Shown here piece by piece: positions 7,442 to 30,326 of a stretch of 32,000 bases of DNA. The stretch comes from Candidatus Electrothrix sp. GW3-4 (GTDB lineage: Bacteria; Desulfobacterota; Desulfobulbia; Desulfobulbales; Desulfobulbaceae). How positions within the stretch are numbered: position 1 is the stretch's first letter; each line of letters starts with the position of its first letter. The notes below the pieces were generated by a model. It was not told the origin of the DNA, searched no databases, and saw only the letters and a list, made by a program, of their open reading frames with translations. Position numbers and translations under genes: made by a program. The stretch is taken from contig NZ_CP147990.1 in NCBI RefSeq assembly GCF_037902255.1, positions 3,120,001-3,152,000 on the forward strand, written 5' to 3'.

Positions 7442-8311
7442 ATGAAAACGAGACAATACGTATCCTTTGATTGGGCAATGAAACGACTCCTGCGCTCAAA
7501 AGCCAATTTTGGCGTCCTGGCAGGTTTTTTATCCGAACTCCTCAGGGAAAACATCACGATCCTTGAAGTTCTGGAGTCTGAAGCCAACAAGGACTTTAAA
7601 AAGCATAAAAAAAATGTGCTTGATCTGAAGGTGAAAAACTCCAGGGATGAGATTATCATCATTGAAGTCCAGTATGATCGCGACTACTCTTTTTTCCATC
7701 GCATCCTCTGGGGTACATCAAGGGTGGTGACCGAGCATCTTCACGAGGGGGATGATTATTTTCGGGTTCAAAAAGTCATCTCTGTTAACCTTATCTACTT
7801 CGATTTAGGGGAAGGCGAGGATTATATCTATCATGGCGTTACCTCGTTTCGAGGTATCCATAAAAACGACGTGTTGCGGCTCAGAGCCAATGAAAAAAAA
7901 GATCTCGGCAAAGACAGTGTTCACAAGATCTTCCCGGAGTATTACCTGATAAAAATAAATCGCTTTGATGATCTGGCAAAAGACACCCTTGACGAATGGA
8001 TATACTTTTTAAAAAACGAAGAGATTAAACCGGAGTTTACTGCCCAGGGCCTACAAGAGGCAGGAAGGGTTCTCGCCTATACCAAACTCAACAAAGAAGA
8101 ACAAATTGATTATAATAATTACATTGATACTCGTCGCCGAAGGGATAGTGAGCTTCGAACGAAATTCAGTGAAGGGCTTGAGGAAGGTTTGGAAAAGGGT
8201 TTGAAAAAAGGGCGGCTGGAAACTGCACGATCAATGAAAAAAGAGGGGATTCCTGGCGAAATTATCCAAAGATGCACCGGGCTTTCTCTTGACGAAATCA
8301 ATGGGCTCTGA
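7442..8311 (+). CDS. Rpn/YhgA-like PD-(D/E)XK nuclease family protein (recombination-promoting nuclease, annotated elsewhere as putative transposase)
   Basis: The N-terminus YVSFDWAMKRLL, the core DLKVKN...IIIIEVQ and the conserved C-terminal helix-rich tail are typical of the TIGR01784/Rpn family, recalled from memory. Confidence 0.7.
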   Translation: MKTRQYVSFDWAMKRLLRSKANFGVLAGFLSELLRENITILEVLESEANKDFKKHKKNVLDLKVKNSRDEIIIIEVQYDRDYSFFHRILWGTSRVVTEHLHEGDDYFRVQKVISVNLIYFDLGEGEDYIYHGVTSFRGIHKNDVLRLRANEKKDLGKDSVHKIFPEYYLIKINRFDDLAKDTLDEWIYFLKNEEIKPEFTAQGLQEAGRVLAYTKLNKEEQIDYNNYIDTRRRRDSELRTKFSEGLEEGLEKGLKKGRLETARSMKKEGIPGEIIQRCTGLSLDEINGL

Positions 8312-8313
8312 AA

Positions 8314-8337
8314 AAGAGGATGTCCTCCCATCCTCTT
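8314..8337. terminator. hairpin between convergent genes (possible bidirectional terminator)
   Basis: 9-bp stem aagaggatg/catcctctt with loop tcctcc. An A-run lies on the left and the T-run on the right is weak. Confidence 0.5.
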
Positions 8338-8393
8338 TCCAGAGAGCTTGCCGGAATACACCGACAGCTCAAAACATCAGTCAGATAAAATTC

Positions 8394-10352
8394 TCAAGCC
8401 CCTGCCAGCGTATTAAATGCATGTCGTTCATCTGCATTACCAACAACCGCGACCAAATCACCACTCTGAAAGGTATAATCCACTTTAGGATTCGAATAAA
8501 ATTCTTTCCCGTGAATAATCCCCACAATTGACGCTCCTGTCTTGGAACGCACCGCTGCTTCCCCGATATTTTTATGGGCAAGCGGACTTTCAGGAGCAAT
8601 AGTCACCCATGAAATTTCCAGCATATTCTTTATATTGCCAAGTTTTGCCAAAAGATCATGCCCGTCCTGGGCCTGATGAATGGGCGAATAGAGGTTTTGC
8701 CGTACCTCATCAGTATATTGCTGAATAACATTCACCGGGACATCCATATGCAAAAGCGCCTGCCGAGCAATCTCCAAGCCTGCTTCCATTTCAGGCAACA
8801 CCGCCATGTATATGCCACTTTCATATAATGCCTGGGTTTGCTTGATACCATCAGCTCGGGCAATAATATGGAGTTCAGGATTATGCTGCCGTGATTGCTT
8901 GACAATGGATTGCGAGGTTGTAACATCAGGGGTGGTAATAAGTAAGAGCTTGGCTGCCTCCACCTTTGCAAGTTCAAAAACCGTTGAGTGGCTTATATCA
9001 CCATAGATGACGGGATATTGAGCTGTTTTACATTCAATCATTCGTTGGTGGTTCATCTCAATAATGACAAAAGGGATACTGAGTTCCATCAGGACCTGAG
9101 CGATGTGTTGTCCTACCCGCCCACCTCCGGCAATGATGATATGGTCCTTAAAGCCGGAATCAGGGATGTTTTCTGTTTGCAAGGGTTCATATTGAAACCG
9201 GCTTTTTTTAAGTTTGTAGAGAGGGGCTGCCAGGGCTGAAGCAAAAGGGGTCAGCACCATGCTCAAGACTGACACGGCAAGAATAAGAGAATACATATCC
9301 TGGTCAATGGACTTTGTTTCAAGCCCTAAGCGTGCAAGCACAAAGGAAAATTCACCCACCTGAAACAACCCGAAGCCAATGGCAAGGGGAACAATATTGC
9401 CATAGCGGAACAGGATGGCCAGCACGGAAAAAATGACTCCTTTGAAAACCGCAATGGCTATACACAGGGAAAGGATAATAACCCAATTTTTGAACAAATA
9501 GACCGGGTCAAGCAGCATACCCACCGAGGTAAAAAACAAAAGACCAAAAATATCCCTGAGTGGGATAATGTCGCTCAGGGCCTGATGCCCATAATCAGAC
9601 TCACTCAACACCATGCCGGCAACAAAGGCCCCAAAAGCAAAAGACAGGCCAAAGAGGTAGGTGGCATAGCCTATACCGAGTCCTATGGCAGTGATAGATA
9701 AGATAAAAAGCTCTCGTGAATTCCACTGCGCTACATGCTCCATCAGCCAAGGCAACAACTTTCTGCCAAAATAAAACATCAAGACCAGGAAGACGACAGA
9801 TTTAACAATGGCAATGGCCAGGATAGGCAAACCTGCTTCAGGGTTGCTGAGTTGCGGGAGAATAATCATCATCGGGATGATGGCTAAATCCTGAATAATG
9901 AGCATCCCGATCATGACCCGGCTGGAAAGTGTCCCTAACAGCCCCCTGCTCATCAGGGTTTTTAAGGTCACCATGGTGCTGGAAAGTGAGATTAAGGCAC
10001 CGAACCATATTGCATGCACTGAAGAAAATCCTAAATACCTGCCAAGAACAAAGCCGAAGCCAATGGTGAGCAGGATTTGGATTGGTGTTCCTATCAAGGC
10101 GATATTTTTAACCGGCTTCAGTTCGCTGAGAGAAAACTCCAATCCCAGAGCAAAGAGCAGAAGGGCCACGCCGATCTCCGCCAGCAGCTCAATCTCATGG
10201 ATATCTCCGACAGTCACTCCGCCGGTATATGGGCCGACAACAATCCCGGCAATAATATAGCCTAGAATCAACGGTTGTTTGGCCCGTTGCGCAATAAGTG
10301 CGCCAAGCAAGGCGGCAACAACAATGATAACAATATCTGCGGCTACACCCAT
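8394..10352 (-). CDS. CPA2-family monovalent cation:proton antiporter (Kef/YbaL-like) with C-terminal RCK (TrkA-N/TrkA-C) domains
   Basis: The N-terminal two thirds is polytopic membrane. A Rossmann-type motif [10 protein letters not shown] follows, then a TrkA-C-like end. GAGGAG lies 6 nt upstream of the ATG. Confidence 0.85.
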
Positions 10353-16726: not shown

Positions 16727-18283
16727 TTACTTCTTTTCCTTAGCTGCTCCAGGGACATGGGACCAGCCCGTTGTCAGCTTATCAACAACATTCGGCGGAT
16801 TACTCGGCTCACCAGTTGACTTAACCGTTACATTCTGCTCGGTCATATCAACCACCGGGACAGCAGGAATTTCGGTCAGACCATACCACTCATTCAGGTC
16901 AACGCCATCAGGCAGGTTGGTCAGCAGTTTTTCAGCAACCTTCTGACTGGCCTGGCGAAAACGAAGCTTGGCATGAACCTCCAGCTCATGTCCTTTTCCC
17001 TGCGGATAGAGGATGGTATAGACGATATCCCGATACCCCTTGGGTGGGATAAGACCGTGTTTGGCATAGGACACCACCTTCCAGGGATCAATCTGGAAGA
17101 CCTCATGCATATCGGTTCCTTCGGTGTTAAAGACGTGGGTGTTCCCGTCCAGCTCGCCCTTCTCATCCAGATAACCGCTCTGTATCAGTACCTTACCGGT
17201 TTTCTTATCTGTAATCTTGACTTCAAGCCACATCTCACGAACAGCGGTCAGCGAGGTCGGCAGGTTATGGCCTGCACGGCGGTTATGGACCCGAACCCTG
17301 ATCTTATACAGATCACCCTCCTTATTATACATGGGATCAATCTCGATCTCCGCAGCAGCCTGAAGGCGCTGGACCGCCATCTCGTACTTCTGTTGCAGAT
17401 TAGCCGCCAGCTTCTCATCACCCTCTTTCTCGGCCTTGAGTTTACCCAGGAAGTACATCAGGAAGTTGGCCCCATTAAAGTAATGGTGATACTCGCTCCG
17501 CTTGGGCTTGATGAACTCATCCGCAGAACGTTTAAAGGTGTCGATATCCACCATATGGCAGTCCTGACATTGAATACCGTTCAGGGCGTATAGGCTCTTC
17601 TTCCACTCACCATAGGTGAACTCATAGGGGAAGTGCTTGTCGTAATGGTAGACATGATGACAGCCTGCGCAGAGTTCAGCCGTCAGGTGCTTCGGAGACT
17701 CCACACATTCATGAAAACCACCACCACAGCCCTCGTAGTTGGGGAAAGGACCGTATTTGGTTCGGGTCACCGAGCCATCGGCGTTTTCACGGCCTGGAGA
17801 AAGAACAAAGGAGCCATTTTCCGGCTCATGGGATGGGGTCTCCCAATGGGTCAGCCGTTTAATGGAGTGACAGACATCACAGGACACACCGGCCTTGGCC
17901 AGAGGACTGAGATTGTTGAAATCCAATTCTGCGGTTTCCCCCTTAACAAAGGCGGCTGGTGTATGACAGCCCTCACACTGTTTGGTGATCTCTTTTCCCA
18001 CTGCTTTAATAGCCAGGTTCAGCTCCCCCAGATAGACCGGATCCTGAAAGGCCATGGAGTGCATGGAGCCCTGCCATTCTTCGTACTGCTTGGGATGACA
18101 ACCAGCACAGGTGGAAATAGACGGCGCGACAAAGTCGGCCTTGGTCTTCTCCCATTGCAGGTTTGACGGCTTAAAAGAAAGCAATTCAGGCTGCTTGGCG
18201 CCTTCGGCTGCAAAGCCTGAGGTAGCCACTGTAAGCAACCCGGCTGCCAGCCCCATAGCCAACCCAATGTATTTGTGTCTCAT
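16727..18283 (-). CDS. periplasmic pentaheme c-type cytochrome with a heme-free C-terminal domain
   Basis: Signal peptide MRHKYIGLAMGLAAGLLTVATSGFAAEG. Five CXXCH motifs (CAGCH, CEGCH, CDVCH, CAGCH, CQDCH), all in the first ~250 aa. Confidence 0.8.
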   Translation of the reverse strand: MRHKYIGLAMGLAAGLLTVATSGFAAEGAKQPELLSFKPSNLQWEKTKADFVAPSISTCAGCHPKQYEEWQGSMHSMAFQDPVYLGELNLAIKAVGKEITKQCEGCHTPAAFVKGETAELDFNNLSPLAKAGVSCDVCHSIKRLTHWETPSHEPENGSFVLSPGRENADGSVTRTKYGPFPNYEGCGGGFHECVESPKHLTAELCAGCHHVYHYDKHFPYEFTYGEWKKSLYALNGIQCQDCHMVDIDTFKRSADEFIKPKRSEYHHYFNGANFLMYFLGKLKAEKEGDEKLAANLQQKYEMAVQRLQAAAEIEIDPMYNKEGDLYKIRVRVHNRRAGHNLPTSLTAVREMWLEVKITDKKTGKVLIQSGYLDEKGELDGNTHVFNTEGTDMHEVFQIDPWKVVSYAKHGLIPPKGYRDIVYTILYPQGKGHELEVHAKLRFRQASQKVAEKLLTNLPDGVDLNEWYGLTEIPAVPVVDMTEQNVTVKSTGEPSNPPNVVDKLTTGWSHVPGAAKEKK

Positions 18284-18649
18284 TCTTCCTCCTTTCTTTG
18301 TTCGTTAATTCTCTGTTCGTTCAGTTAAACATTCAGTTAAACAAGCACCCTTTGTTATTCATAACCATCTTTTGTTATTAAAAAGTATTATAGGTCAACG
18401 CAGAAAAAAGGTACAAGGACTTTTTTTATAAAAAATCTCTCCCATGCAAAAAAAAGCATACCAGCTCTTCGGAAGCAACGTTGGCGTAGAACGTTATTCC
18501 CTCCCCCTCTGTTTCCCGGCATCCCACAGGGCAGGATACATACTGTCTCGCCAACTAGGAGACAGCTGCCCCCTTTTTTCCCTCTATACAGGACGAACGG
18601 AGGGATGGACGTGCAGAGGTACGCAGACGTGCTGCGGGGACCTGCCTAC

Positions 18650-19699
18650 TCAGAGACCATTGGTGAGCTGGCCCAAAAAGCCGTCTCTCTTGTCCTCCAC
18701 GCCCTGTTCCAACTCCATGACCCGTTCGGCGTAATCATCGTATTCTGTCACCAGCACTGAAACGATAAAGTTGCCTGGTCCCAACTTGCCATTGCCGAGC
18801 TGGGAACGGGGGATGGCCGGAAAGAGCTGGGGAGAGCTGGTCATGGCATAGCGCTGTCCATCAAGGGGGATACTGCCGAAGTTAAACTTTCGGGTGGCGA
18901 TAACTTCACTATGCCCCTGTTGCTGCCTGTCAAGCCAGACCGCAGTGATGGATACCTCTGCGGTTACATCGACCTTTTTCGGACGGGCCGGGGATAAGGA
19001 CCGGGTCTGCATCGTCTGCATGACGGTCCAGGGGGCAAGGAGATCAAAGCCAAAGGGCCGGCTGATATCAAAAGCAGCGACCTTGGCCTTGGCATGGGTC
19101 ATGGCAATGTTCTTGGGCCGGATCTGAAAGGCAGTGCCGTCAATGGTCTCTTCGATGGTAAAGACCAGGCTCATCACCTCACCGAGCTCGGGCAGGGAAC
19201 GGGTAAGGTGCAGCTCCTGGAGGTGAATACTCCGTTGGCCATCAGTGGGACAGGCATAGACCTGATCAGCAGAGGAGCGGTACTGCTTGGTAAAGTACGG
19301 AGAATCAGCGGGGTCGTTGGCAGAAAGACATTTACCATAGAAATGATCACCCACGGCCAGGGCCGAATAGGAGGCAGTATAGCGTTCTGCTTCCTTTTTC
19401 AGGAACTCCTGGACCTGTTCGGTTGCCATTTGCAGGACCGAGGCCGCTGTAGCAGAGGCGGGAGAGAACAAGGCCGTTTCTCGGGTTCCGTCTTCCTTCT
19501 TTGCTGTTGCCTGGCATGATTTCTTGATGTCGCACTCGGCCCATTCTTTGACATAGCCCAGAGAGAGCTGCACGGTTTCGCCCTCCCGTTGGTCCGAGTC
19601 AGGATAGGGAGGAAAGACCAGGTTGGAGACATTTCTATTCACAGAGGAACAGCCGGTCAGGGTTAGGCATAACAGGGATAGCACGAGCAGTCTTTTCAT
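18650..19699 (-). CDS. hypothetical lipoprotein
   Basis: Lipobox LTLTGC follows a signal peptide. I prefer the ATG at 19699 (AAGGAGA upstream) to the one at 19720. Confidence 0.6.
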   Translation of the reverse strand: MKRLLVLSLLCLTLTGCSSVNRNVSNLVFPPYPDSDQREGETVQLSLGYVKEWAECDIKKSCQATAKKEDGTRETALFSPASATAASVLQMATEQVQEFLKKEAERYTASYSALAVGDHFYGKCLSANDPADSPYFTKQYRSSADQVYACPTDGQRSIHLQELHLTRSLPELGEVMSLVFTIEETIDGTAFQIRPKNIAMTHAKAKVAAFDISRPFGFDLLAPWTVMQTMQTRSLSPARPKKVDVTAEVSITAVWLDRQQQGHSEVIATRKFNFGSIPLDGQRYAMTSSPQLFPAIPRSQLGNGKLGPGNFIVSVLVTEYDDYAERVMELEQGVEDKRDGFLGQLTNGL

Positions 19700-19848
19700 C
19701 TTCTCTCCTTTTCTCTTCATTGATCAAGGCCCTGGGCAGAGAACCGAGGACAGGTATCTCGCAGGTCAAGCAAACAGGGGAGAACGGAACAGCACAGTAA
19801 AGGAGCAGGCGTATTCGAGAGACATTGCCGGAAAGGATAGAATGATAT

Positions 19849-20085
19849 CTATATATGATATCGATTATAGATCTCCTTCCGTACCGGGCAGCCACAGAGG
19901 ACATCCTCTCCCAGGGTGTACTGGAAGTTACAGGTGCTGTTATCCCGGCATCGTATATAGAGGACGGACTCAAGAAGGCATTTTTCTGCCTGACAGATGT
20001 CCTGTTTGTTCTTATCAAGGCAGGAGAATCCTTTCTTGCATTTTGCGGCGCGTTCTCTTGCCTCCTCACTGACGTCAATATCCAT
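19849..20085 (-). CDS. small Cys-rich hypothetical protein (78 aa, 9 Cys)
   Basis: ORF between the lipoprotein and CZB genes on the same strand. The RBS is weak and I recognised no family. Confidence 0.4.
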   Translation of the reverse strand: MDIDVSEEARERAAKCKKGFSCLDKNKQDICQAEKCLLESVLYIRCRDNSTCNFQYTLGEDVLCGCPVRKEIYNRYHI

Positions 20086-20148
20086 TACTTCATCCGTTCT
20101 TTGTACTTACCCCTCGTCAGGGCCCACCGACTTTGCCTCCCCCTGGGG

Positions 20149-20187
20149 CAAAGAAAAACCGGGTTATGCACGAGGCACCTACCCGGT
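20149..20187 (-). terminator. rho-independent terminator downstream of CZB gene 2
   Basis: Stem accgggt/acccggt (20158-20164 and 20181-20187), followed on the minus strand by TTTTCTTT. It lies 42 nt after the stop at 20229. Confidence 0.65.
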
Positions 20188-20228
20188 CAGGAACGTATCT
20201 TCTCATCAAGAGCAACAAGGCAAGGCGC

Positions 20229-20594
20229 TCAGATACTGTCTTTTGCTGCCTGAGACTCGACCTGTTCCATCACCCTGATGAATTCATCACATTGTGCCTT
20301 AAACTTGCTCAGGGCCTCTTTACCTGCCGGACTTTTTCGCTCGGCCTCCGGCATCTGAACCAAGCGCTTGATGGCTGCATGGAAGTCTTTATGGAGACTT
20401 TCCACCTGTCCCATCTCAGAGTAGGCAGCGAACTCCTCCAGGCCGGACTTATAGAGCCATTGCCCGAAATCGCAGGACATATGGTCGGGAACATCGGCCA
20501 CAGTCAGGTTTTCCAGGCCATAGAAGAAATCAGCCAACTTTGATTTCCACCGTAAATGAGCAACCGTTGCTACCTGCAAATGTGCTACATCCAT
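20229..20594 (-). CDS. stand-alone chemoreceptor zinc-binding (CZB) domain protein, paralog 2
   Basis: CZB signature present: HLRW ... CDFGQW ... HKDFH. It is 121 aa and aligns without gaps to paralog 1, with about 62% identity by manual count. Confidence 0.8.
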   Translation of the reverse strand: MDVAHLQVATVAHLRWKSKLADFFYGLENLTVADVPDHMSCDFGQWLYKSGLEEFAAYSEMGQVESLHKDFHAAIKRLVQMPEAERKSPAGKEALSKFKAQCDEFIRVMEQVESQAAKDSI

Positions 20595-20760
20595 GCTTCA
20601 CCTCTTCTAACTCTGGGGGTTGAACTCCTGGGTTGAACTCCTGTCAGTTATTCTTCGGAGTTACGATTTTATGTCGGTCAACTTTTCTTGTCAATAATTT
20701 CTTATGGTACTGCCTTAAAAAAAGGAGTGCTGTTCCCTTCCCTTGGGAGGGGAAGGCCGG

Positions 20761-21138
20761 TTAGGCAAGAATCAAGAGCTCCTCTCTCTCCCCGATAAAA
20801 TTATAAAAGGCACATTCTCTGCATTCTTGCTCCTTATGTAAGCAAAGGCAGGACATATGGCCTTTATAGAGAGTCTGACGCAGGACCCAACAGCAGCGTC
20901 CCCCATTTTTGCCATGATGAATGCCATCAGTCTCGCCTTGAACACTTACCGGACAAAGGCCGTGGCGTAATACATTTTCCCCTCCTGGTTCCCTGCCGCA
21001 TCCATTGAATTCCCAACAATTTTCCTGCCTGTCATTCTCTATACTACCGATCATACTCCTCTCGATCACACTACTCTCAATCACACTCCTATTGACCATA
21101 CTCTCTATCATACTTTTGTTCCGTCTATGCTTTAGCAA
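20761..21138 (-). CDS. small Cys-rich protein with paired CW motifs (two-CW-domain-like); start codon uncertain
   Basis: NCWEFNGCGREPGG and GGRCCW motifs plus a CRECAF end. The N-terminal 30 codons are degenerate DNA tandem repeats (SMIE/SVIE). The ORF start is TTG and several internal ATGs are possible starts. Confidence 0.5.
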   Translation of the reverse strand: MLKHRRNKSMIESMVNRSVIESSVIERSMIGSIENDRQENCWEFNGCGREPGGENVLRHGLCPVSVQGETDGIHHGKNGGRCCWVLRQTLYKGHMSCLCLHKEQECRECAFYNFIGEREELLILA

Positions 21139-21263
21139 TTTACCCTTTAATCGCTTAGCATTATAGCATCTTTTGCACTACCCGCACAATAAGGTAACCG
21201 ACTCATTTTGTCAGGAAAATAACCCGACCATCCGGGCAAGAGACCGTAGAGAAACAAGGGAAA

Positions 21264-21286
21264 GGGCTTGGGGCTTGGGGCTTGGG
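21264..21286 (+). repeat. G-quadruplex-type motif GGGCTTGGGGCTTGGGGCTTGGG
   Basis: Four G3-4 runs separated by CTT, read directly. The motif sits in a G-rich stretch at 21250-21340. Confidence 0.6.
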
Positions 21287-21371
21287 AAGGAGAGAGGAGG
21301 CAGGTAAGGGTGGTTGTTGTATGGAGGGATTGTTAGGGGCAGAAGGCGGAGCAGATCCAAGGGACTGCCTC

Positions 21372-21407
21372 GAACTCATTCCCTCTTATAGAGGGTGGTG
21401 GCAAAAC
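21372..21407 (-). repeat. degenerate terminal CRISPR repeat
   Basis: gaactcattccctcttatagagggtggtggcaaaac aligns to the consensus repeat through the CCCTCTT..ATAG.GGT.GGTG...AAC core. It lies one spacer length (33 nt) from repeat 1. Confidence 0.6.
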
Positions 21408-21410
21408 CAA

Positions 21411-21441
21411 TATAGAGGCGACCGGTCGGTCGCCCCTACAG
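21411..21441. repeat. 31-nt palindromic element, copy A (tatagaggcgaccggtcggtcgcccctacag)
   Basis: 28/31 identical to 24077-24107 by manual alignment. It fills the slot between the degenerate repeat and repeat 1. Confidence 0.75.
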
Positions 21442-22183
21442 TCTTAATACCCTCTTCATAGGGTAGGTGTTCCAACGGCGATTTCCGTTGCTTTAATCTC
21501 AACCCTAAAGGAGTCTTAATACCCTCTTCATAGGGTAGGTGTTCCAACCGCAAAAAAAACAGCTATTTTGGACAAAGTTAATTAGTCTTAATACCCTCTT
21601 CATAGGGTAGGTGTTCCAACCAGGGCTTTGTGGGTTTGCTAGCACAACAACCTGTCTTAATACCCTCTTCATAGGGTAGGTGTTCCAACCTATCTTCCAC
21701 ATCCCGGGGGGGATAACCCCAAGCGTCTTAATACCCTCTTCATAGGGTAGGTGTTCCAACGAAATCCAAGATGTAACAGTAAACACGAATGCAAAGTCTT
21801 AATACCCTCTTCATAGGGTAGGTGTTCCAACGTAAATTAGGAGTGGATGTAACTCTTATCATGGGTGTCTTAATACCCTCTTCATAGGGTAGGTGTTCCA
21901 ACCGGATGAAAATCCGTATCAGTTGGCGACAGCGTCTTAATACCCTCTTCATAGGGTAGGTGTTCCAACTTTCAGGATGTCAGGAAACGGAAACGCAGTA
22001 TTATGTCTTAATACCCTCTTCATAGGGTAGGTGTTCCAACATTTTGGGATTTTTCCCAAGCATGATTAGCAACGAGAGTCTTAATACCCTCTTCATAGGG
22101 TAGGTGTTCCAACAACAGTATCTGCGTCCGGTCAGATCTGTTCTTTTGTCTTAATACCCTCTTCATAGGGTAGGTGTTCCAAC
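21441..22183 (-). CRISPR. CRISPR array with 11 identical 36-nt repeats and 10 spacers
   Basis: The plus-strand repeat is gtcttaataccctcttcatagggtaggtgttccaac, starting at 21441, 21513, 21585, 21654, 21725, 21796, 21867, 21934, 22005, 22078 and 22148. Spacer lengths are 36, 36, 33, 35, 35, 35, 31, 35, 37 and 34 nt, and all spacers are unique. I infer minus-strand transcription because the degenerate repeat is at the low-coordinate end and the reverse complement, GTTGGAAC...ATTAAGAC, has the canonical GTT...AAGAC form. Confidence 0.95.
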
Positions 22184-22216
22184 AGCGGCCCTGCATCAAA
22201 CAATACTGAATTCAGC

Positions 22217-22245
22217 AGATTATGCAAGTAAAATTTTACCATCAA
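22217..22245 (-). promoter_or_regulatory. candidate leader promoter for the CRISPR array
   Basis: The minus strand reads TTGATG-N17-TAATCT. The -10 element ends 34 nt upstream of the leader-proximal repeat. The call rests on pattern match only. Confidence 0.35.
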
Positions 22246-22590
22246 AACGGGTTTTGAAAGTTGTGGATTTTGAACCGCCATTTTCAACCCTCCAATAAAG
22301 CGATATGCGACATTGTGACCAATCAGTCATAATCGGTACAGCATCCTGTACATCCTCTTTCCTGCCCAAGAAAATTCCCTTTCCCTTCAAGGCAGTAGCA
22401 CCAGAACGGGAATTATGATGAAAAATGACACAAGGAAAAATCAACGCAAAATAATTTGATGTCCGGCCCTGTTTCCCTTCTTTCCCCTCTTTCTTTTTCT
22501 CCTCTATATTATACCTGCTCCTCTGGCCTGGGCAAAGAAAAAGGGGCAGGTCCCTTGATTTCCCCAACCAGGCAGGAAAAACAGCCTGAA

Positions 22591-22760
22591 CCTAAGGACT
22601 CCTCTCAGTTGTCCCTAGGGAGTTCTTCATCTCGAACCTAGGGAGTTCTTCATCTCGAACCTAGGGAGTTTCCTCTCTCGAACCTAGGGAGTTTCCTCTC
22701 TCGAACCTAGGGAGTTCTTTATCTCGAACCTAGGGAGTTTCCTCACTCGCCCCTAGGGAC
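22591..22760. repeat. 23-nt tandem repeat block (6 good units, a degenerate leading unit and a partial trailing unit)
   Basis: Units start at 22614, 22637, 22660, 22683, 22706 and 22729, with consensus cctagggagtt[cttcat/tcctct]ctcgaa. Two variants occur in the order A A B B A' B'. Each unit contains the CCTAGG palindrome. Confidence 0.9.
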
Positions 22761-22870
22761 AAGTCCCTCCTCCTCCTTGTCCACCAAAAAAACACGGTCC
22801 GCTCCACGATTTTTTCTCTTCTCGCACAAGATTATTCCGCAGCAACAGGACGTTACCCCACATATTCCCC

Positions 22871-22899
22871 TTGACAAGCCCTGCCCTCCTCCGTAGGAT
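22871..22899 (+). promoter_or_regulatory. candidate sigma70-type promoter of the HU-like gene
   Basis: TTGACA-N17-TAGGAT, read directly. The -10 element ends 57 nt upstream of the ATG at 22957. Confidence 0.45.
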
Positions 22900-22956
22900 A
22901 CCTCCCATGCGGTTTGCCCGGTGTATCAAGGAGTTCAATTCAACAGGAGAAGAACC

Positions 22957-24027
22957 ATGTCCACTGTTCAATGTCGCGTCGAAAGAAATACCCTGACCAC
23001 CCCTCCTTCCTATAGCCTCCGCTTCATCCCCCACAATATCTATGGTTATGAAGAGCTGGCCGATGAGATCGTGCGGGACAATCCCTCCCTGAACAGGGAT
23101 CAGGTCCTGGTGATGCTGCGGGCCCGGGATCAGACCGTGCAACGACTGCTCATCAACGGCAACCAGGTCACCCTGGAAGACGCCTTCAGCTACCGCCTCT
23201 CCTTTAAGGCCCGCCTCAACGAACCCAATGCGCCGCTGCCCTCAGCCGAGGAATGTCTGCGGGTCAAGATCTCGGCCTCCCGGCCCTTTATCAAGGAGGT
23301 GCGGCAAAAGGCCCGGCTGGAACGCCTGCCTGCCGAGGAAAAGCTGCCCCTGATCACCTCCACCGAAGACACGGAGCTGGGCCTGAACGATGTCCTGTAT
23401 GACCAGGGAGTACTCCGGCTGATGGGCAATGATCTCCTCTTTGACCGCAATGAAGCCGACTGTGGCTGCACCCTGACCGGGACCCGCAGTGGCGCTGCAG
23501 TCCAGCACCGCTTTGCGGCCATCTCCAACACAGAGGTCCTGATCGTGCCGACTATCCCGGCCCAGGAGGCGGCCTGGAACAACGAGTACCGGCTTGCCCT
23601 GGCCACCCGCTTTACCGAACACGGGACCCTGCGCACCGGCACCTATCGAGGCAGGCTCCGCACCCCCCTGGAGGTGAGCGGCTTTGACCATCCCAATATG
23701 GAGGTGGGGATCCTGACCGGCAAGGCCACGACGCCCCACGTCCTTATCACCGGCGGCAGCCTGCATGGGGAGGGGATGATCCGGGTCCAGGCCGTGTTGG
23801 ACGCCCGGGATGGGCATATCCTCTGTAACCTGTTGGATATGGAGGAAGAGGGGGCAGCGGGCGATCCGGTGGCAATGCGGGCCAATGGGACCTATACCCT
23901 GGCCGGTTTTAGCGGGGCCCTGGTGAGCAGCCTCAACCTGCGGGTGGATGACTACGAGGCCCTGCATGCCTTGATCCGCAACGACTATGCTGGCCAATTG
24001 GTGGATGTGTTGGCGGTGAGGCCCTAG
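22957..24027 (+). CDS. putative DNA-binding protein with an HU-like N-terminal domain and DUF4469-like Ig-fold region(s)
   Basis: I prefer the ATG at 22957 (AGGAGA 7 nt upstream). The N-terminus VERNTLT...Y.LRF....Y.YEELADEI...NPSLNRDQVLVML...Q.LLINGNQVTLEDAFSYRLSF matches the pattern of HU-fold fusion proteins, and the following ITSTED...GVLRLMGNDLLFD resembles DUF4469. Both calls are from memory only. Confidence 0.45.
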   Translation: MSTVQCRVERNTLTTPPSYSLRFIPHNIYGYEELADEIVRDNPSLNRDQVLVMLRARDQTVQRLLINGNQVTLEDAFSYRLSFKARLNEPNAPLPSAEECLRVKISASRPFIKEVRQKARLERLPAEEKLPLITSTEDTELGLNDVLYDQGVLRLMGNDLLFDRNEADCGCTLTGTRSGAAVQHRFAAISNTEVLIVPTIPAQEAAWNNEYRLALATRFTEHGTLRTGTYRGRLRTPLEVSGFDHPNMEVGILTGKATTPHVLITGGSLHGEGMIRVQAVLDARDGHILCNLLDMEEEGAAGDPVAMRANGTYTLAGFSGALVSSLNLRVDDYEALHALIRNDYAGQLVDVLAVRP

Positions 24028-24073
24028 GGGCAGACCTGCGTGGCTGCCCGGTTGGACTGAAGAGGGGCGAACC

Positions 24074-24109
24074 CACTGTAGGGGCGACCGGCCGGTCGCC
24101 CCTACAGTG
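24074..24109. repeat. perfect 36-nt palindrome (cactgtaggggcgaccgg/ccggtcgcccctacagtg), copy B of the palindromic element; probable bidirectional terminator
   Basis: The 18-nt arms are exact reverse complements. It lies between the convergent stops at 24027 and 24121. Confidence 0.8.
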
Positions 24110-24120
24110 TCCCTGCCCCC

Positions 24121-27100
24121 CTACAGGGGCAGGATATGCACTTCTTCCCGGGAGGGATGGATCCCCTTGAGAAAGAGACCATTACGGCCGTCAATGGAGA
24201 TCGGGTCACCAAAGCGGATCCGCACCCCATTGGTCACGGCATACTCCCGGCTTTCAAAGACCTGGAGGTCCCGGCACCCCACCACACAGGTCTTTTCCAG
24301 GCGGGTGGCCACCACCGAGGCATGGGAGGTCTGACCGCCCCGGGCAGTAAGGAGCCCTTCTGCCATGGAGATCTCCCGGATATCCTCAGGCACGGTATCC
24401 TGCCGGATCAGGATCAGAGGGACATCGGGCTGCTCCTCTCTCAGCTGCTGGATGTTCTCTTCTGTGAACACGGCCAGACCAGAAAGGGCAGAACCGCTCA
24501 CCCCGATCCCCTTGCCCAGGATACTCCCCTGCAGCTCCTCTGATTCGCGAAAGACGTGGAAACGTTCCTTCTTTTTCACCGTGATCATATCCCGGGTCTG
24601 GAGGATGTAGAGATCCTCTGCCGCAGGCCCTTCAAAGGTGAACTCGATCTCCTGGGGATTCCACTCCTTGGTATAGACCAGGTCCCGGGCAATGCTGAGC
24701 AGACGGCTATAGATGGCCGGGAACTTCCGTTCCAGGGTCTGTTCCACCGGTCTCCCGTCCAGTTCAGCCTGCTCCACAGAGACCGGGTAGCTGTTGACCA
24801 GGCCGGAAACGATATCCTCCCCCTGGTCCTCAGAGGCATAATCCCCCCACAGGGCCACCCGTCGCACCTTGCGATAAGGGTGGGCAGTAAACAGGACCCC
24901 ACTGCCCGCCTCTGCACTCCTATTGCCATAGACCATGGACTGGACAATCACGGCCGTGCCCCAATCATCGGACACATCCATCAGGTTGCGATACTGGGTT
25001 GCCTTGGCCGTATTCCAGGAGGAGAGCACCATTTCCACGGCCCCGATCAACTGCAACCAGGGGTCCTCAGGAGCGCTGCGCCCGCGCCTGCGCAAGGCAG
25101 CCTGGTAATCCAAGGCCAACTCCCGCATCTGTGGTGCGGAAAACTGCCGTTTCAGACGCACGCCATGCTGTTCTTTATGGCTGTTCATCAGCCCCTGGAA
25201 CTCCTCCCGTTCCATACCACCGGCCATGGCCCAGGACTGGAGAAAACGACGATAATTATCCCAGAGGAAATACTCTTTCTCCGGGTGATGCGCGACCAAC
25301 TCTTCCACCAGCTCCTCATTGAGCCCCACGTTATGGATGGTGGTCATCATCCCAGGCATGGACATGGCTGACCCGGAACGGACAGAGAGCAACAGGGGGT
25401 CTCTGGGTGAACCAAAACTCCGGTTCGTCTGCTCCTCCAGACTGGTAATAGCCCCCCGTACCCGTTGCATAAACTCATCACGGGCCCGTTTAAAGCCCTG
25501 CACGGCCCGCCAGCAGCGAAAGATCTCGGTGGTGATGATAAAGGCTGGCGGCACCGGTTTACCGTCCCCGGCCAAGATCATCAGGTTAAAGCCCTTATTG
25601 CCCAGATGGATCAGATTATGGGTGCGGAGATTTTCATTATACAAGGAGGAGATGGTCTTTTCCGGATTATAGGTCATGAGCAGGTCAATGGTCCGGGCAT
25701 CCAGGATATCCTTTTGCGCCTCCAGGGTATGGATGATACGGGTAATAAAGTTATCCAGATGTTGCAGACCAAAGGTACTGGCGATAAGGTCCCGGAAAAA
25801 GGACTCGGACAGGCGATGGACCGTGGCCGCCATATCCTCATCCTCACAGAGCGAACGGTACTTGGTCAGGAGATTCTTCTGCCCTGTCTGGGGAATAATT
25901 ATAGAGAGATTATTCTGATGAACATTGGTGTAATAGGCATAGATCACATCCTTGACCCCTTCAGAGAGGCCGCGAACAATGTCCAGATGCTGGGTATAGG
26001 TAAAGCGCTTCATGGTGATGGACGAACTAAGCAGACTGGTATAGGTATCCAGCCGCCGACTGGTGATCCCATCCACCTTCAGGGCCCGGAGAAGGAGGAG
26101 CAGGCAACGGGAGATGCGGATAAAGGTGGCCTGGGTGATAAAGCCCAGGTTGATGGAGCGGGTCAGGCGTTCTATATAGATATTGGCCAGGTTCTCCAGA
26201 CGGAAGCTCAGGCCCAGGGCATCAAATTTCCGTTCCGAATAGCGCCCATAGACCGAGGGGATATCCACGGCAATATGCCTTTTATAATAGATCTCCTCCC
26301 TGGGTTCAAACCGTTCCTCAGAGAGAATAATCTCCTTTAACCGCTCCAACTGGGTGAGCAGGGCATCAAGACAGGCAAAGATATCCCCCTTCTCCAGCAC
26401 ATCCAACAGGCCCTCCATCTCAGGAAAACCGCCTTGGGCCGCATCATGCAGTTGATGCCGCAGCTCTTGCATACTCAGGCTGTACTTATGCTGGAGGAGT
26501 TTGAACATCCTCACCAAGAGGGTAAAACGCCTGCGCTCCCCGAGCGAGATATCCTCCTGCTGGCTGAGCCAGGCATGACGTTCCTTCTTGGGCCAATCCA
26601 GGACCTCATCCATGGAGGAGATCTCCCGCTCCTGCTGGATCCGTTTGGTCAGGACATGCAATTCATCAATAAACGGGCCTTCGGTGACCACCTGGGCAAG
26701 GATCTCATCAGGGAGAAAGGGGCGGAGATGCCTCTTCTCCAGGGTCAGCCAGAAGACAAAGATCCCCTTGATAAAGCCGACAATCAGGTTGGAGGACTCC
26801 ACATGAGATTGCTTGCGCAGGAAGTGGATCAGCACATCATGGCGCTTATGCATCTCGTCCAGTTCAGTCGAGACATCCCGCAACTCCCCTTCTGCCCCGA
26901 TTTCGTTAAAGAAGACCGGCATCAACTTGGTGAACTGCTTGGCCAGATTATAGATAGGGAAGATGGGATGATTGAGCAGATCGGTGATGTCGCGTTGAAA
27001 GAGATCCGTATCCTTGACGCAGGTCCCGGAAAGCTTGATATTGATGATCAGGGCCGAGAACAGGGTGGAACACCATTTGGGTTCCTGCATAATCAGACTC

Positions 27101-28374
27101 AACCAGCCCCGGATATTGGCGAGATGGGCCGGGTTGGTGATGGGCTGCCAATCCTCGTCCACCCCCATGACATTGGCGTACTGAAAGCCAAAGCGAACCG
27201 TCTCAAAGAGAAAGGCCTCCACCAGACGCGAGTTATTGCGGCGAAAGACCTCGCCCCCAATCACCTGAATACATTGCAGGGAGGTATGGGGATATTTGCG
27301 CACATTGGCCTTAAGGAGGTGGAAGGTGGTGACAAAGAACTGTTCTATCTCCTCAAAGGTCTGCTTGCGAATGAGCTGGATCAGCGAGCGGTTGATCTCA
27401 CGCAGGCTTTCCTCATGGATCAGATAGAGGCCCGAGGTGTCCATGATCCGAAAGAGAAAGAAGAGCTTGCGGTTCTCGGCAAACGAGGCCTCCTGTTCAT
27501 CGTCGGTGTCTGGGGTTAACTGCTTGGGAATCTCCCGATAGAACCGGACAATATCGATATGGGCGGGCAGCTCCAGAAGCTCGCTCAGGGCCTGATAGGC
27601 ATCTGCCTCAATATCGATGATATCAAGGGCTGCCAGATGCTCTTGAAAACGGTCATGGGAGATGGCCGTGAGCAGCGATCCTGCCTGCCATCCGCTGCAA
27701 AACGAACCACATTGGGTCTCAAACCAGGGCTGAGGGTTTTCTTCACTGAGCCAATACGTATAATTCAGCCGGAGGATCTTTTTCATCAGCCGGGCCAGGG
27801 GGCCGCAGGAGAAGGAGATACCCTCATGGTTGCGCCCGAGTTTCATCAGATGCAAGGCCATCTTCTTCATGGGATGATGTCCCTGGACCATATACATCAT
27901 CACGCTTTCATCAATCTCATCCAGCCGAACCAATCGTTCAAAGAAGCTGTCCAGCTGTTCCTGATAGAGCTCAAATGAATCGATGTGCAACGAGGCGATG
28001 AGCTTATCAGCATAGGCCAACATAGCCTCCATGGTCATGGAGACCACCTTGCCGTTTTTCTTCGACTCTGTCAGGGCATCAAGAAAAACCCCTGCAAACA
28101 GAGAAAAACAGGCAGGCCCCAGTTCATGCCTTCGATATTGATTGAAATTTTTAAGGACAAAGGGGCGCAGTTCCAGGATAATCATCTGCCAGTTCCGATA
28201 GGGATGGCTGATCTCGTAGAGCAGGTGTTCCAGCTTGGTTGCCACCCCCTGATAGCGGGCTACAACCTCCTGGAGGACCCTGAAGCGTTCCGGGATCTCC
28301 ACAACACTGGCGGTTTCCTCTTTATTGGCCTCCCAGGCCTTGGATGTAAACACTGGAGATTGTTGATCAGTCAT
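24121..28374 (-). CDS. 1417-aa protein: uncharacterised ~900-aa N-terminal region fused to a PPDK/PEP-synthase-type ATP-grasp and phosphohistidine swivel domain, with no PEP/pyruvate TIM barrel
   Basis: The C-terminal ~510 aa (about 24121-25630) carries LGNKGFNLMILAG, SVRSGSAMSMPGMMTTIHNVGLN and TARGGQTSHASVVATRLEKTCVVG, with the catalytic His codon at 24324-24322. The protein ends about 55 aa after the His domain. GAAGAGG lies upstream of the ATG. Confidence 0.8.
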   Translation of the reverse strand: MTDQQSPVFTSKAWEANKEETASVVEIPERFRVLQEVVARYQGVATKLEHLLYEISHPYRNWQMIILELRPFVLKNFNQYRRHELGPACFSLFAGVFLDALTESKKNGKVVSMTMEAMLAYADKLIASLHIDSFELYQEQLDSFFERLVRLDEIDESVMMYMVQGHHPMKKMALHLMKLGRNHEGISFSCGPLARLMKKILRLNYTYWLSEENPQPWFETQCGSFCSGWQAGSLLTAISHDRFQEHLAALDIIDIEADAYQALSELLELPAHIDIVRFYREIPKQLTPDTDDEQEASFAENRKLFFLFRIMDTSGLYLIHEESLREINRSLIQLIRKQTFEEIEQFFVTTFHLLKANVRKYPHTSLQCIQVIGGEVFRRNNSRLVEAFLFETVRFGFQYANVMGVDEDWQPITNPAHLANIRGWLSLIMQEPKWCSTLFSALIINIKLSGTCVKDTDLFQRDITDLLNHPIFPIYNLAKQFTKLMPVFFNEIGAEGELRDVSTELDEMHKRHDVLIHFLRKQSHVESSNLIVGFIKGIFVFWLTLEKRHLRPFLPDEILAQVVTEGPFIDELHVLTKRIQQEREISSMDEVLDWPKKERHAWLSQQEDISLGERRRFTLLVRMFKLLQHKYSLSMQELRHQLHDAAQGGFPEMEGLLDVLEKGDIFACLDALLTQLERLKEIILSEERFEPREEIYYKRHIAVDIPSVYGRYSERKFDALGLSFRLENLANIYIERLTRSINLGFITQATFIRISRCLLLLLRALKVDGITSRRLDTYTSLLSSSITMKRFTYTQHLDIVRGLSEGVKDVIYAYYTNVHQNNLSIIIPQTGQKNLLTKYRSLCEDEDMAATVHRLSESFFRDLIASTFGLQHLDNFITRIIHTLEAQKDILDARTIDLLMTYNPEKTISSLYNENLRTHNLIHLGNKGFNLMILAGDGKPVPPAFIITTEIFRCWRAVQGFKRARDEFMQRVRGAITSLEEQTNRSFGSPRDPLLLSVRSGSAMSMPGMMTTIHNVGLNEELVEELVAHHPEKEYFLWDNYRRFLQSWAMAGGMEREEFQGLMNSHKEQHGVRLKRQFSAPQMRELALDYQAALRRRGRSAPEDPWLQLIGAVEMVLSSWNTAKATQYRNLMDVSDDWGTAVIVQSMVYGNRSAEAGSGVLFTAHPYRKVRRVALWGDYASEDQGEDIVSGLVNSYPVSVEQAELDGRPVEQTLERKFPAIYSRLLSIARDLVYTKEWNPQEIEFTFEGPAAEDLYILQTRDMITVKKKERFHVFRESEELQGSILGKGIGVSGSALSGLAVFTEENIQQLREEQPDVPLILIRQDTVPEDIREISMAEGLLTARGGQTSHASVVATRLEKTCVVGCRDLQVFESREYAVTNGVRIRFGDPISIDGRNGLFLKGIHPSREEVHILPL

Positions 28375-28428: not shown

Positions 28429-29040
28429 TTACAGAAGGTTTTGACGGCAGGCTTCCGTATAGACAAACGGTGATCTTCTTTTAAGAAAGTCGGTTGTACA
28501 AAAGCCTTCTATATATTCCTGATAATGCCGAGATCGCATTGCTCTGTTTCCGGCATCATCCAGACGAAGACGATCAATTGTTTCCTGTATCTGACGTGTT
28601 ATACTGAACGGCAAGCTCGGATTCGGATAGATCCGTCCGCTGACAAGCTCCAGAGAAAACCAGTTGTCTTTAATGTGAAACGGATCAAGAACATCATCAT
28701 ATCTCCCTTTACGACTGTTCATTATTGAGCAGGCCAGCCGATAATTGCTCCACTCGTGAGCAAGGCGGGCAGAAGTCCCGACTTTGACGGTAAAATGATC
28801 GGCAGACACGCCGCCAGTGACGCGCTCAATATAGACGGCAAGATAGGCACAACACCCCTTGTAACTGACATGCAGATCATCAAGGCAGTCGCGCCAGCAA
28901 GGTTTCAGTGTTATTCCTTCCGGCACAGGCTGATCTGGAGCAATGCCTTTTTTCTGTAGAAAAGCAAGTCCTTTCCGCCGTACCTTGGCATCAAAGTCAG
29001 CCGGTTCCGGTTGTTCAGTCACAGGAATCATCAAAGCCAC
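28429..29040 (-). CDS. ptuB: PtuB-like HNH-family endonuclease (TIGR02646-like), Septu-type partner
   Basis: The core DHFTVKV....LAHEWSNYRLACSIMNSRKG is typical of the TIGR02646/PtuB HNH-like family. The start overlaps the preceding ATPase gene by 10 nt. Confidence 0.65.
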   Translation of the reverse strand: MALMIPVTEQPEPADFDAKVRRKGLAFLQKKGIAPDQPVPEGITLKPCWRDCLDDLHVSYKGCCAYLAVYIERVTGGVSADHFTVKVGTSARLAHEWSNYRLACSIMNSRKGRYDDVLDPFHIKDNWFSLELVSGRIYPNPSLPFSITRQIQETIDRLRLDDAGNRAMRSRHYQEYIEGFCTTDFLKRRSPFVYTEACRQNLL

Positions 29041-30326
29041 CCTCTTTTCTCCGCCACAAAACGCCAGCGCATCCAGAAAGGGTCTGTGTCACCCAGGACA
29101 TTTCTCAACTCCTGGTCAAGCTGTTTGGCCTGAGCCGCATCAAAGGAGGTGTCACTCAGGGCAACCGCTGCTTTCCCAAGAACCTCTTCCGCTTCCGCTG
29201 ATCGGGCACTGGACAAATCAAACGCCTCACTGGTCAGCCAGCTTGAGGCGTCACCCCGCCGGATCAAAGGCCGCCTACTCAAGCTTACGCCGGGAATTCC
29301 GCCGTTGTCGCCTCCGAAAAGATCGAAGTCAAACCAAGCATCTTTATCGTGATCAAAAATCGGTTCCACCGAGGCCATAACAAGGGGCGAATGGGTGGAC
29401 GCGACAAGCTGCACCTTAGCATGTTCTGTCAGGGAGTGAACAACATCAAGCAGTGGCCTGATAATCCGGCGCTGCCATTTCGGATGAAGATGCGCTTCAA
29501 TCTCATCAATAAGAAAAACGGCCTGTGAAGTTGTTTCTTCGTCAAGAAGCCTGCTTGCCTTGACATGTTCTTCCCAGGTCCAGACAAGCAGATAGGCCAG
29601 CGCGAGAATTCGACGCATTCCCGCTGAAGCGTGCAGGACAGGAACAGATTGGCCGTACGGCATCTTGAGGGTCGGAATGTCCCGCGGGTCATCCAGGCTG
29701 ATCCGCACCAGCTCACCTGGAATGATTTTTTCCCCACTAGAAGGAGAGAGTTTTTCCAGCACTGCGCAAAGGCGCTTGAAGGCAGCACCGTTTTCTTTCT
29801 GCCAGCCGGACCAGTCCGCAATCAGCCCGTTACAGAGCAACCCCCGCTGATCATCCCGAAGACCATCCCAGACCTCTCTTGCATTAAATACATAGGCCGA
29901 AGGTCGCTCCTGAACATCGGAATTCCCTTTCCTGCGCCAATAATTACGGGCCGGATCCCAGACCGCGAAACTGCCGTCAACCTGGGCATAAAGAATCAGC
30001 CCCGGATTTGAAGGGCGACCCGCCTTACCTGCCCATGCCTGTGCTTTACGGTCAAATGTGCTGATATAACTGATAGGTTTTGATTTTGCGGTGAATGTAA
30101 ACTCAATAGATGCTTTCCCGGTTTCATGCGGCTTTGCCATCAGCCCTGCAGGAAGCCGGGGATTGACTTCTGCTGGCCATTTTTTAGTAAGCGACCACCA
30201 AATGATATCCAGCAGAAAACTTTTTCCCAGCCCATTGTCACCGGTCAGCAAGTTCAGCCGCTCGCCGAATTCCAGCTGCAAAGCAGGAGCCGGGCCTACA
30301 TTGTTCATGTTCAGTTGCTTAATCAT
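29031..30326 (-). CDS. ptuA: PtuA-like AAA/ABC-type ATPase, Septu-type
   Basis: Walker A LTGDNGLGKS near the N-terminus, Walker B/D-loop VFLIDEIEAHLHP, and an H-loop-like ASTHSP. It is paired with the HNH-like gene. Confidence 0.65.
   Translation of the reverse strand: MIKQLNMNNVGPAPALQLEFGERLNLLTGDNGLGKSFLLDIIWWSLTKKWPAEVNPRLPAGLMAKPHETGKASIEFTFTAKSKPISYISTFDRKAQAWAGKAGRPSNPGLILYAQVDGSFAVWDPARNYWRRKGNSDVQERPSAYVFNAREVWDGLRDDQRGLLCNGLIADWSGWQKENGAAFKRLCAVLEKLSPSSGEKIIPGELVRISLDDPRDIPTLKMPYGQSVPVLHASAGMRRILALAYLLVWTWEEHVKASRLLDEETTSQAVFLIDEIEAHLHPKWQRRIIRPLLDVVHSLTEHAKVQLVASTHSPLVMASVEPIFDHDKDAWFDFDLFGGDNGGIPGVSLSRRPLIRRGDASSWLTSEAFDLSSARSAEAEEVLGKAAVALSDTSFDAAQAKQLDQELRNVLGDTDPFWMRWRFVAEKRGWL

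Follow-up and report, generated by a model that had tools for sequence, protein, structure and literature searches.

The window analysed, a stretch of 32,000 nt, corresponded to positions 3,120,001-3,152,000 of the single 4.64-Mb contig of Candidatus Electrothrix sp. GW3-4; positions given below as nt are those of the window unless marked as genome positions. A CRISPR array was located at nt 21441-22183 on the minus strand. It was composed of 11 identical 36-nt repeats and 10 spacers of 31-37 nt, no two of them alike, with 67-73 nt from one repeat start to the next, and thus had the make-up by which a CRISPR array is defined, i.e. at least three near-identical repeats of 23-50 nt alternating with unique spacers of similar length. 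The eleven identical repeats and ten spacers, already described in a first-pass annotation made from the sequence alone, were borne out by sequence analysis of this region, although the span assigned there, nt 21372-22245, held not only the array but also a repeat remnant and about one third of the leader. Read in the crRNA sense, the repeat was GTTGGAACACCTACCCTATGAAGAGGGTATTAAGAC, beginning with GTTGGAAC at the 5′ end and closing with ATTAAGAC at the 3′ end of the minus-strand reading. RNA folding predicted a 6-bp stem (UACCCU/AGGGUA) that encloses a loop of 6 nt and leaves 7 nt unpaired on its 3′ side, the stem being the same as the internal TACCCT/AGGGTA hairpin noted before. All 11 repeats matched the Rfam family CRISPR-DR32 (RF01342), on the minus strand only and weakly, with 25 bits versus a gathering threshold of 48. 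With a score below this threshold, the repeat belongs to no curated repeat family, and its classification against the family database was informative for the strand only: the matches lend support to the minus-strand sense, not to membership in CRISPR-DR32.

The flank of about 160 nt next to the first repeat (nt 22184-22345, minus strand) was homologous to the leaders of four sister arrays located elsewhere in the genome. In an alignment of the five arrays, leader plus first repeat had a mean column identity of 86%; therefore, nt 22184-22345 were assigned as the leader and the minus strand as the sense of transcription. This agrees with the earlier placement of the leader from nt 22184 onward and of transcription on the minus strand, to which the minus-only matches to CRISPR-DR32 also conform. 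The leader was present on one side of the array, was common to the other arrays of the same system, and had homologues in 11 of 13 same-genus genomes. It contained a candidate promoter, TTGCAT and TATTGT separated by 16 nt, which ended 16 nt before the first repeat and whose key positions were invariant in all five leaders. A consensus scan flagged no promoter there, since the -35 hexamer matched the consensus at only 3 of 6 positions. This pair of hexamers would be the putative promoter of the array.

Immediately past the last full repeat, at the low-coordinate end of the array, there was a GC-rich palindromic hairpin on the minus strand (nt 21411-21440, 30 nt), with a 13-bp stem, a predicted energy of -25 kcal/mol (z = -5.1 versus shuffles) and a U-rich tail, at which a terminator-like site was called on the minus strand. 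The hairpin was a variant of GTAGGGGCGACCGGCCGGTCGCCCCTAC, a 28-nt perfect GC-rich palindrome with about nine copies in the genome, namely eight listed copies and the diverged copy at nt 21411-21440. Copies were found at nt 21411-21440 and 24074-24101 in the window and at genome positions 3761748, 3771212, 3795095, 3800264, and 3802175, and six of the approximately nine, the window copy included, lay at or just past the end of a CRISPR array. In a relative, designated G008, an array with the identical repeat variant ended in this hairpin as well, and seven consecutive T residues came after it. The hairpin at nt 21411-21440 is likely the intrinsic terminator of the pre-crRNA. The slot for the oldest (eleventh) spacer, nt 21408-21440 (33 nt), thus turned out to hold no spacer but a terminator-like palindrome, one that recurs at the ends of sister arrays. 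Beyond the hairpin, a remnant of a repeat was observed at nt 21372-21407 on the minus strand. Its local alignment with the window repeat scored 26 (shuffle mean, 15.6), a value reached by 0.4% of shuffles, and the decayed terminal repeat proposed earlier for this end was thereby upheld, the alignment beating 99.6% of shuffles. With the 37-nt repeat of a sister family, the score was 32, which was reached by none of 2000 shuffles. It is credible from these alignments that nt 21372-21407 represent a decayed repeat fitting the 37-nt sister family better than the window repeat. Just past the decayed repeat, a G-rich simple repeat (GGGGCTT units) was present at nt 21260-21290, between the array and an ORF encoding a Cys-rich protein.

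None of 28 window ORFs compared with Pfam or PADLOC matched a cas family, consistent with the initial statement that no ORF in the 32 kb resembles a Cas protein. The neighbourhood of the array was therefore free of cas genes, as in the definition of distant arrays (Bernheim et al. 2020). Its neighbours were as previously named: a CZB protein, which was a stand-alone protein, an HU-fold/DUF4469 protein, a dikinase-like giant, and a Septu pair, PtuA/PtuB (nt 28429-30326; PADLOC models, E = 5.5e-180 for PtuA and 1.1e-66 for PtuB). Redox and housekeeping genes were also among the neighbours. The array was situated within a lineage-specific segment of 5.7 kb (nt 18436-24117), flanked on one side by a multihaem cytochrome gene (nt 16727-18283) and on the other by the dikinase-like gene (nt 24121-28374). 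In eight same-genus genomes, these two flanking genes were only about 35-200 nt apart and the segment was absent. The segment contained an ORF of 356 aa, a CZB paralogue, an ORF for a Cys-rich protein of 125 aa, the array with its leader, a block of 23-nt tandem repeats, and the HU-fold/DUF4469 gene. The 356-aa ORF (nt 18650-19720, minus strand) belonged to no Pfam or PADLOC family and had no DNA match in 30 relatives. The Cys-rich ORF (nt 20761-21138, minus strand) had the pattern CWEF..GCG...CP...CCW...CxxC and at least 13 paralogues in the genome. Searches of the segment revealed no gene for an integrase, a transposase or a relaxase and none of replication or phage type, and its borders had neither a target-site duplication nor a terminal inverted repeat; that is, the array was surrounded by no recognisable mobility genes or element ends. 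One copy of the palindrome (nt 24074-24101) separated the HU-fold gene from the dikinase-like gene; together with the copy at nt 21411-21440, it brackets the module formed by the array and the HU-fold gene.

Allowing up to 3 mismatches, the repeat family had 202 occurrences in the genome, which formed five arrays: array A at 666 kb (17 repeats), array B, i.e. the window array, at 3.141 Mb (11 repeats), array C at 3.762 Mb (45 repeats), array D at 3.772 Mb (96 repeats), and array E at 3.792 Mb on the opposite strand (33 repeats). A sixth array, at 3.797 Mb, had the related 37-nt repeat. Arrays C, D, and E flanked a type III-B locus together with a Cas2-Cas1-RT module, which spanned 3.765-3.790 Mb. 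Genes for Cas2, Cas1 (463 aa), and a group-II-intron-like reverse transcriptase (277 aa) were situated between arrays C and D, while those for a Csm6-family protein, Cmr1, Cas10/Cmr2, Cmr3, Cmr4, Cmr5, and Cmr6 were situated between arrays D and E, all as open frames. Two Cas6 genes (PF10040; 50.3 and 44 bits versus a cut-off of 25) flanked the cmr operon. The effector set (Cas10 plus Cmr1, 3, 4, 5, and 6) and the adaptation set (Cas1 and Cas2) were thus complete and in open frames. Cas10 possessed the cyclase motif GGDD at residue 406, and no HD motif was seen when its N-terminal part was inspected for one. Two further Cas1 genes, at 0.90 and 1.73 Mb, were located beside arrays with unrelated repeats. 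Genome-wide family searches detected one Cas10 and one RAMP set only; therefore, the locus at 3.765-3.790 Mb is the only type III effector available in this genome. The distant cas locus that the first-pass annotation had envisaged as one option was thus recovered by a genome-wide cas family search: a single, complete type III-B locus, accompanied by two Cas6 genes and the Cas2-Cas1-RT module. It was not an operon just outside the window, as in an ordinary split locus, but lay about 620 kb away, which makes the window array a distant one. The interval was about 623 kb to the adaptation genes and about 640 kb to the cmr operon (620-650 kb overall), and across the genome the nearest cas gene of the families searched (Cas1, Cas6, Cas10, and RAMP) was about 623 kb away. 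The window array, first described as lacking cas genes in its surroundings, was one of two such satellites of its repeat family, the other being array A, which lay amid transposase and helicase genes. Array A also had an HU-fold paralogue 5 kb away, and one of the paralogues of the Cys-rich ORF was 2.2 kb from its leader. In array D (genome positions 3774050-3776243), a block of 16 spacers was duplicated internally in tandem, in addition to two smaller spacer duplications, and spacer 2 of this array was identical to spacer 2 of array E (genome positions 3792226-3792258).

Comparison of the repeats of arrays A to E showed that their differences were confined to the first 7 nt, the repeats starting with GTCGTAAC in A, GTTGGAAC in B, GTCGGAAC in C and D, and GTCGTAGC in E, whereas the last 29 nt, comprising the hairpin and the 8-nt 3′ segment, were identical. 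Compared to the repeats flanking the cmr operon, the window repeat had 1-2 mismatches, all within these 7 nt, and the last 29 nt were also identical across species of the genus. Each of the five arrays was uniform for its own repeat variant. Array-uniform variants, together with the absence of shared spacers, therefore fit growth in place, with uptake copying the leader-proximal repeat. The window spacers had a length range equal to that of the spacers in the cas-adjacent arrays; being unique and within this same range, they indicate that array B is not a copied piece of another array.

The window leader shared 74-76% identity with the other leaders of its own genome and 83% with a leader from another species (G013) that adjoined a Cmr1-like gene. 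In addition, the repeat variant GTTGGAAC was the main variant of arrays in the relatives G008 and G007. Because its leader is nearer to that of G013 than to those of its own genome, and because its repeat variant is the main one in G008 and G007, the array most likely came from a related cable bacterium. Array and 5.7-kb segment probably arrived together, by recombination with or transfer from such a bacterium, and the array has been compatible with the resident system ever since. No spacer was common to the window array and the arrays of relatives with the identical repeat variant.

The HU/IHF-fold DUF4469 gene (nt 22957-24024) was located 770 nt from the first repeat. The structure model of its product had a pLDDT of 87, with 4fmr as the best solved match, and the N-terminal domain of the predicted model superposed on HU/IHF proteins. 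About 10 copies of this family were present in the genome and about 100 across 10 of 14 genus genomes. Between the leader and the gene, 23-nt tandem repeats were found at nt 22588-22760. Similarly, HU-fold genes were preceded by 2-10 tandem units of 23/24 nt of their own in 24 of 30 loci (L057-L086); the unit sequence differed between paralogues, and such blocks also occurred in places lacking any CRISPR. Since the tandem blocks accompany the HU-fold family, the repeats at nt 22588-22760 belong to the HU-fold gene and not to the CRISPR leader. This layout resembles that of a DNA-binding protein with private iterons. Five or more further cases of an HU-fold gene adjoining an array end were encountered among three related species, with paralogues abutting a leader or leader stub in the same divergent layout in G007 (contig 99), G003 (contigs 26 and 105), and at two sites in G013. 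A general role of the HU-fold gene as a CRISPR helper was ruled out, as 28 of 30 genus leaders had no HU-fold gene within 1.5 kb and the tandem units follow the gene family. It is improbable, though conceivable from the recurrent adjacency, that HU-fold modules act as a vehicle or docking site through which leader-repeat units reach new chromosomal sites, or as local IHF-like architectural factors for spacer integration.

Spacers of the window array had no second copy elsewhere in the 4.64-Mb genome and thus no self-target. When the whole array was compared by blastn with 50,697 phage records and 72,556 plasmids, no spacer target was obtained. Exact 26-nt cores, taken from 8 of the 10 spacers, had no match in IMG/VR, and the cores of spacers 1 and 3 had none in JGI metagenome contigs. 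Spacers 1 and 2 were compared with 100 genomes of the family, and the only hit was a 25/29 match in three related genomes, which, with an E value of about 0.005 per genome, was taken as chance and not as a target. The suggested searches of spacers against viral, plasmid and host sequences therefore yielded no protospacer in the collections covered.

Taken together, the window array is very likely a distant satellite of the single type III-B CRISPR-Cas system of this genome and would be served by it in trans. Of the two possibilities raised at the outset, service by a distant cas locus or use by something that is not cas, the former is strongly supported, since the same repeat family and leader flank the type III-B locus, and nothing calls for the latter. 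On the evidence of array anatomy, use in trans appears well founded. Transcription, Cas6 processing, crRNA loading and ongoing spacer uptake can be inferred for the window array as follows. Transcription of the minus strand would start from the putative promoter in the conserved leader, cross the 11 repeats and be stopped by the GC-rich hairpin that comes after the last of them. Cleavage by Cas6 in type III systems is known to occur at the 3′ base of the repeat hairpin; each crRNA then starts with the 8-nt 3′ segment as its 5′ handle, and what it carries of the 5′ part of the following repeat is removed by trimming. Of the two Cas6 proteins encoded beside the cmr operon, about 640 kb off, one may thus cleave the repeat at the 3′ base of the 6-bp hairpin, leaving an 8-nt 5′ handle, AUUAAGAC, on each crRNA, and the variable first 7 nt of the repeat would fall within the 3′ part that is trimmed in type III maturation. 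Repeat variation confined to these trimmed nucleotides is therefore placed where the least consequence is expected. The crRNAs would be loaded into the Cmr1-6/Cas10 complex, and binding to a complementary invader transcript would elicit RNA cleavage and cyclic-oligoadenylate signalling; the latter is proposed in view of the GGDD motif of Cas10, in which no HD motif was seen at the N-terminus, and of the neighbouring gene of the Csm6 family with a CARF domain. New spacers would enter at the leader-proximal repeat by means of the Cas1-Cas2 module and the reverse transcriptase; RT-linked modules are able to acquire spacers from RNA. The window array was much shorter than the cas-adjacent arrays, with 11 versus 33-96 repeats, and its shortness could reflect low activity. 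Also counting against service in trans are the poor -35 match of the candidate promoter, the lack of a protospacer in the collections searched, and a leader identity of only 74-76% to the other leaders of the genome.

The same shortness would also be expected of a silent relic, i.e. an array carried in by rearrangement or transfer that is no longer transcribed or extended and has not yet decayed. Its position in a lineage-specific insertion, the decayed repeat at its low-coordinate end and the want of a target for any spacer in the collections searched fit such a history, and the stubs in relatives, consisting of a leader plus a single repeat, show that erosion does occur in this repeat family. 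Nevertheless, all 11 repeats are identical, the leader is preserved in full, including the invariant positions of the candidate promoter, the unit is delimited by a terminator-like hairpin, and the cognate Cas6, the effector and the adaptation module are intact in the same genome, no sequence feature blocking use in trans. A relic is thus unlikely. It is very improbable that the 5.7-kb segment is, or derives from, a mobile element exploiting the host type III-B machinery against competitors, a kind of co-option discussed for plasmids in Bernheim et al. (PMC7145637). The segment has neither the genes nor the ends of such an element, as described above, and no spacer matched the plasmid, phage or related-genome collections searched. 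That eight same-genus genomes lack the segment at this site, that the window leader has greater identity to the cmr-adjacent leader of another species (83%) than to those of its own genome (74-76%), and that the exact repeat variant is the main one in G008 and G007 would agree with an element, but a horizontal origin of the segment is also compatible with a distant satellite of the type III-B system.

Hardly conceivable at all is a use apart from Cas, in which the repeats would serve a neighbouring non-cas gene such as that for the HU-fold protein. Although this gene is only 770 nt from the first repeat and a small number of its paralogues in relatives likewise adjoin leaders of the same repeat family, repeat, leader and terminator are common to the cas-flanking arrays, the 23-nt tandem repeats are private to the HU-fold gene family and are found apart from CRISPR as well, and 28 of the 30 genus leaders have no such neighbour.

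The window array is a genuine but ordinary distant array, one more case of a type already described. Of all arrays, 40% are orphan or distant, 75% of distant arrays have repeats compatible with a cas cluster in trans, and distant arrays have fewer spacers than cas-adjacent ones (Bernheim et al. 2020, PMC7145637). Like the arrays in that study (PMC7145637), the window array has no cas genes nearby, its repeats fit a cas cluster of its own genome, it has fewer spacers than the cas-adjacent arrays, and several arrays go with one cas locus. Nothing essential sets it apart from them; particular to this case are the distance of about 620 kb, the 5.7-kb insertion and a leader lineage nearer to that of another species. 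Its weight for CRISPR biology in general is small, given how frequent cas-distant arrays are and that their use in trans is already known to be feasible. Defence systems and phages of cable bacteria have hardly been studied, and here the array contributes a single point: the type III-B system of these bacteria has several dispersed arrays with a common leader and terminator hairpin, at least one of them in a recently gained segment. Arrays of cable bacteria may be useful as strain markers, and possibly as a record of infection once viromes from the same sediments exist.

As in type III-B loci with Cas6 and RT-linked Cas1-Cas2, the sister arrays flank Cmr1-6, Cas10, Cas6, Cas2-Cas1, and a separate short RT; groups of RT-CRISPR systems were reportedly catalogued by Toro et al. 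in 2018. The window repeat likewise has a small hairpin, and the last 8 nt at its 3′ end are similar to a handle of the ATTGAAAC type, but the handle reads ATTAAGAC, and the window holds the array alone. Standalone repeats and eroded mini-arrays around type III loci are said to have been described by Shmakov et al. in 2023. Similarly, relatives of this strain carry many dispersed arrays and leader-plus-one-repeat stubs of the same repeat family, and the window array ends in a decayed repeat; unlike those mini-arrays, it is intact: its 11 repeats are perfect and its leader is complete. One stub, in Ca. Electrothrix aarhusensis (G007 contig 99, nt 8100-9554 of the contig), consists of a single decayed repeat with a leader 84-90% like that of the window array and lies beside an HU-fold paralogue and four tandem units of 23 nt. 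The chromosomal site of this stub is another one, corresponding by synteny to 3.26-3.29 Mb of the present genome.
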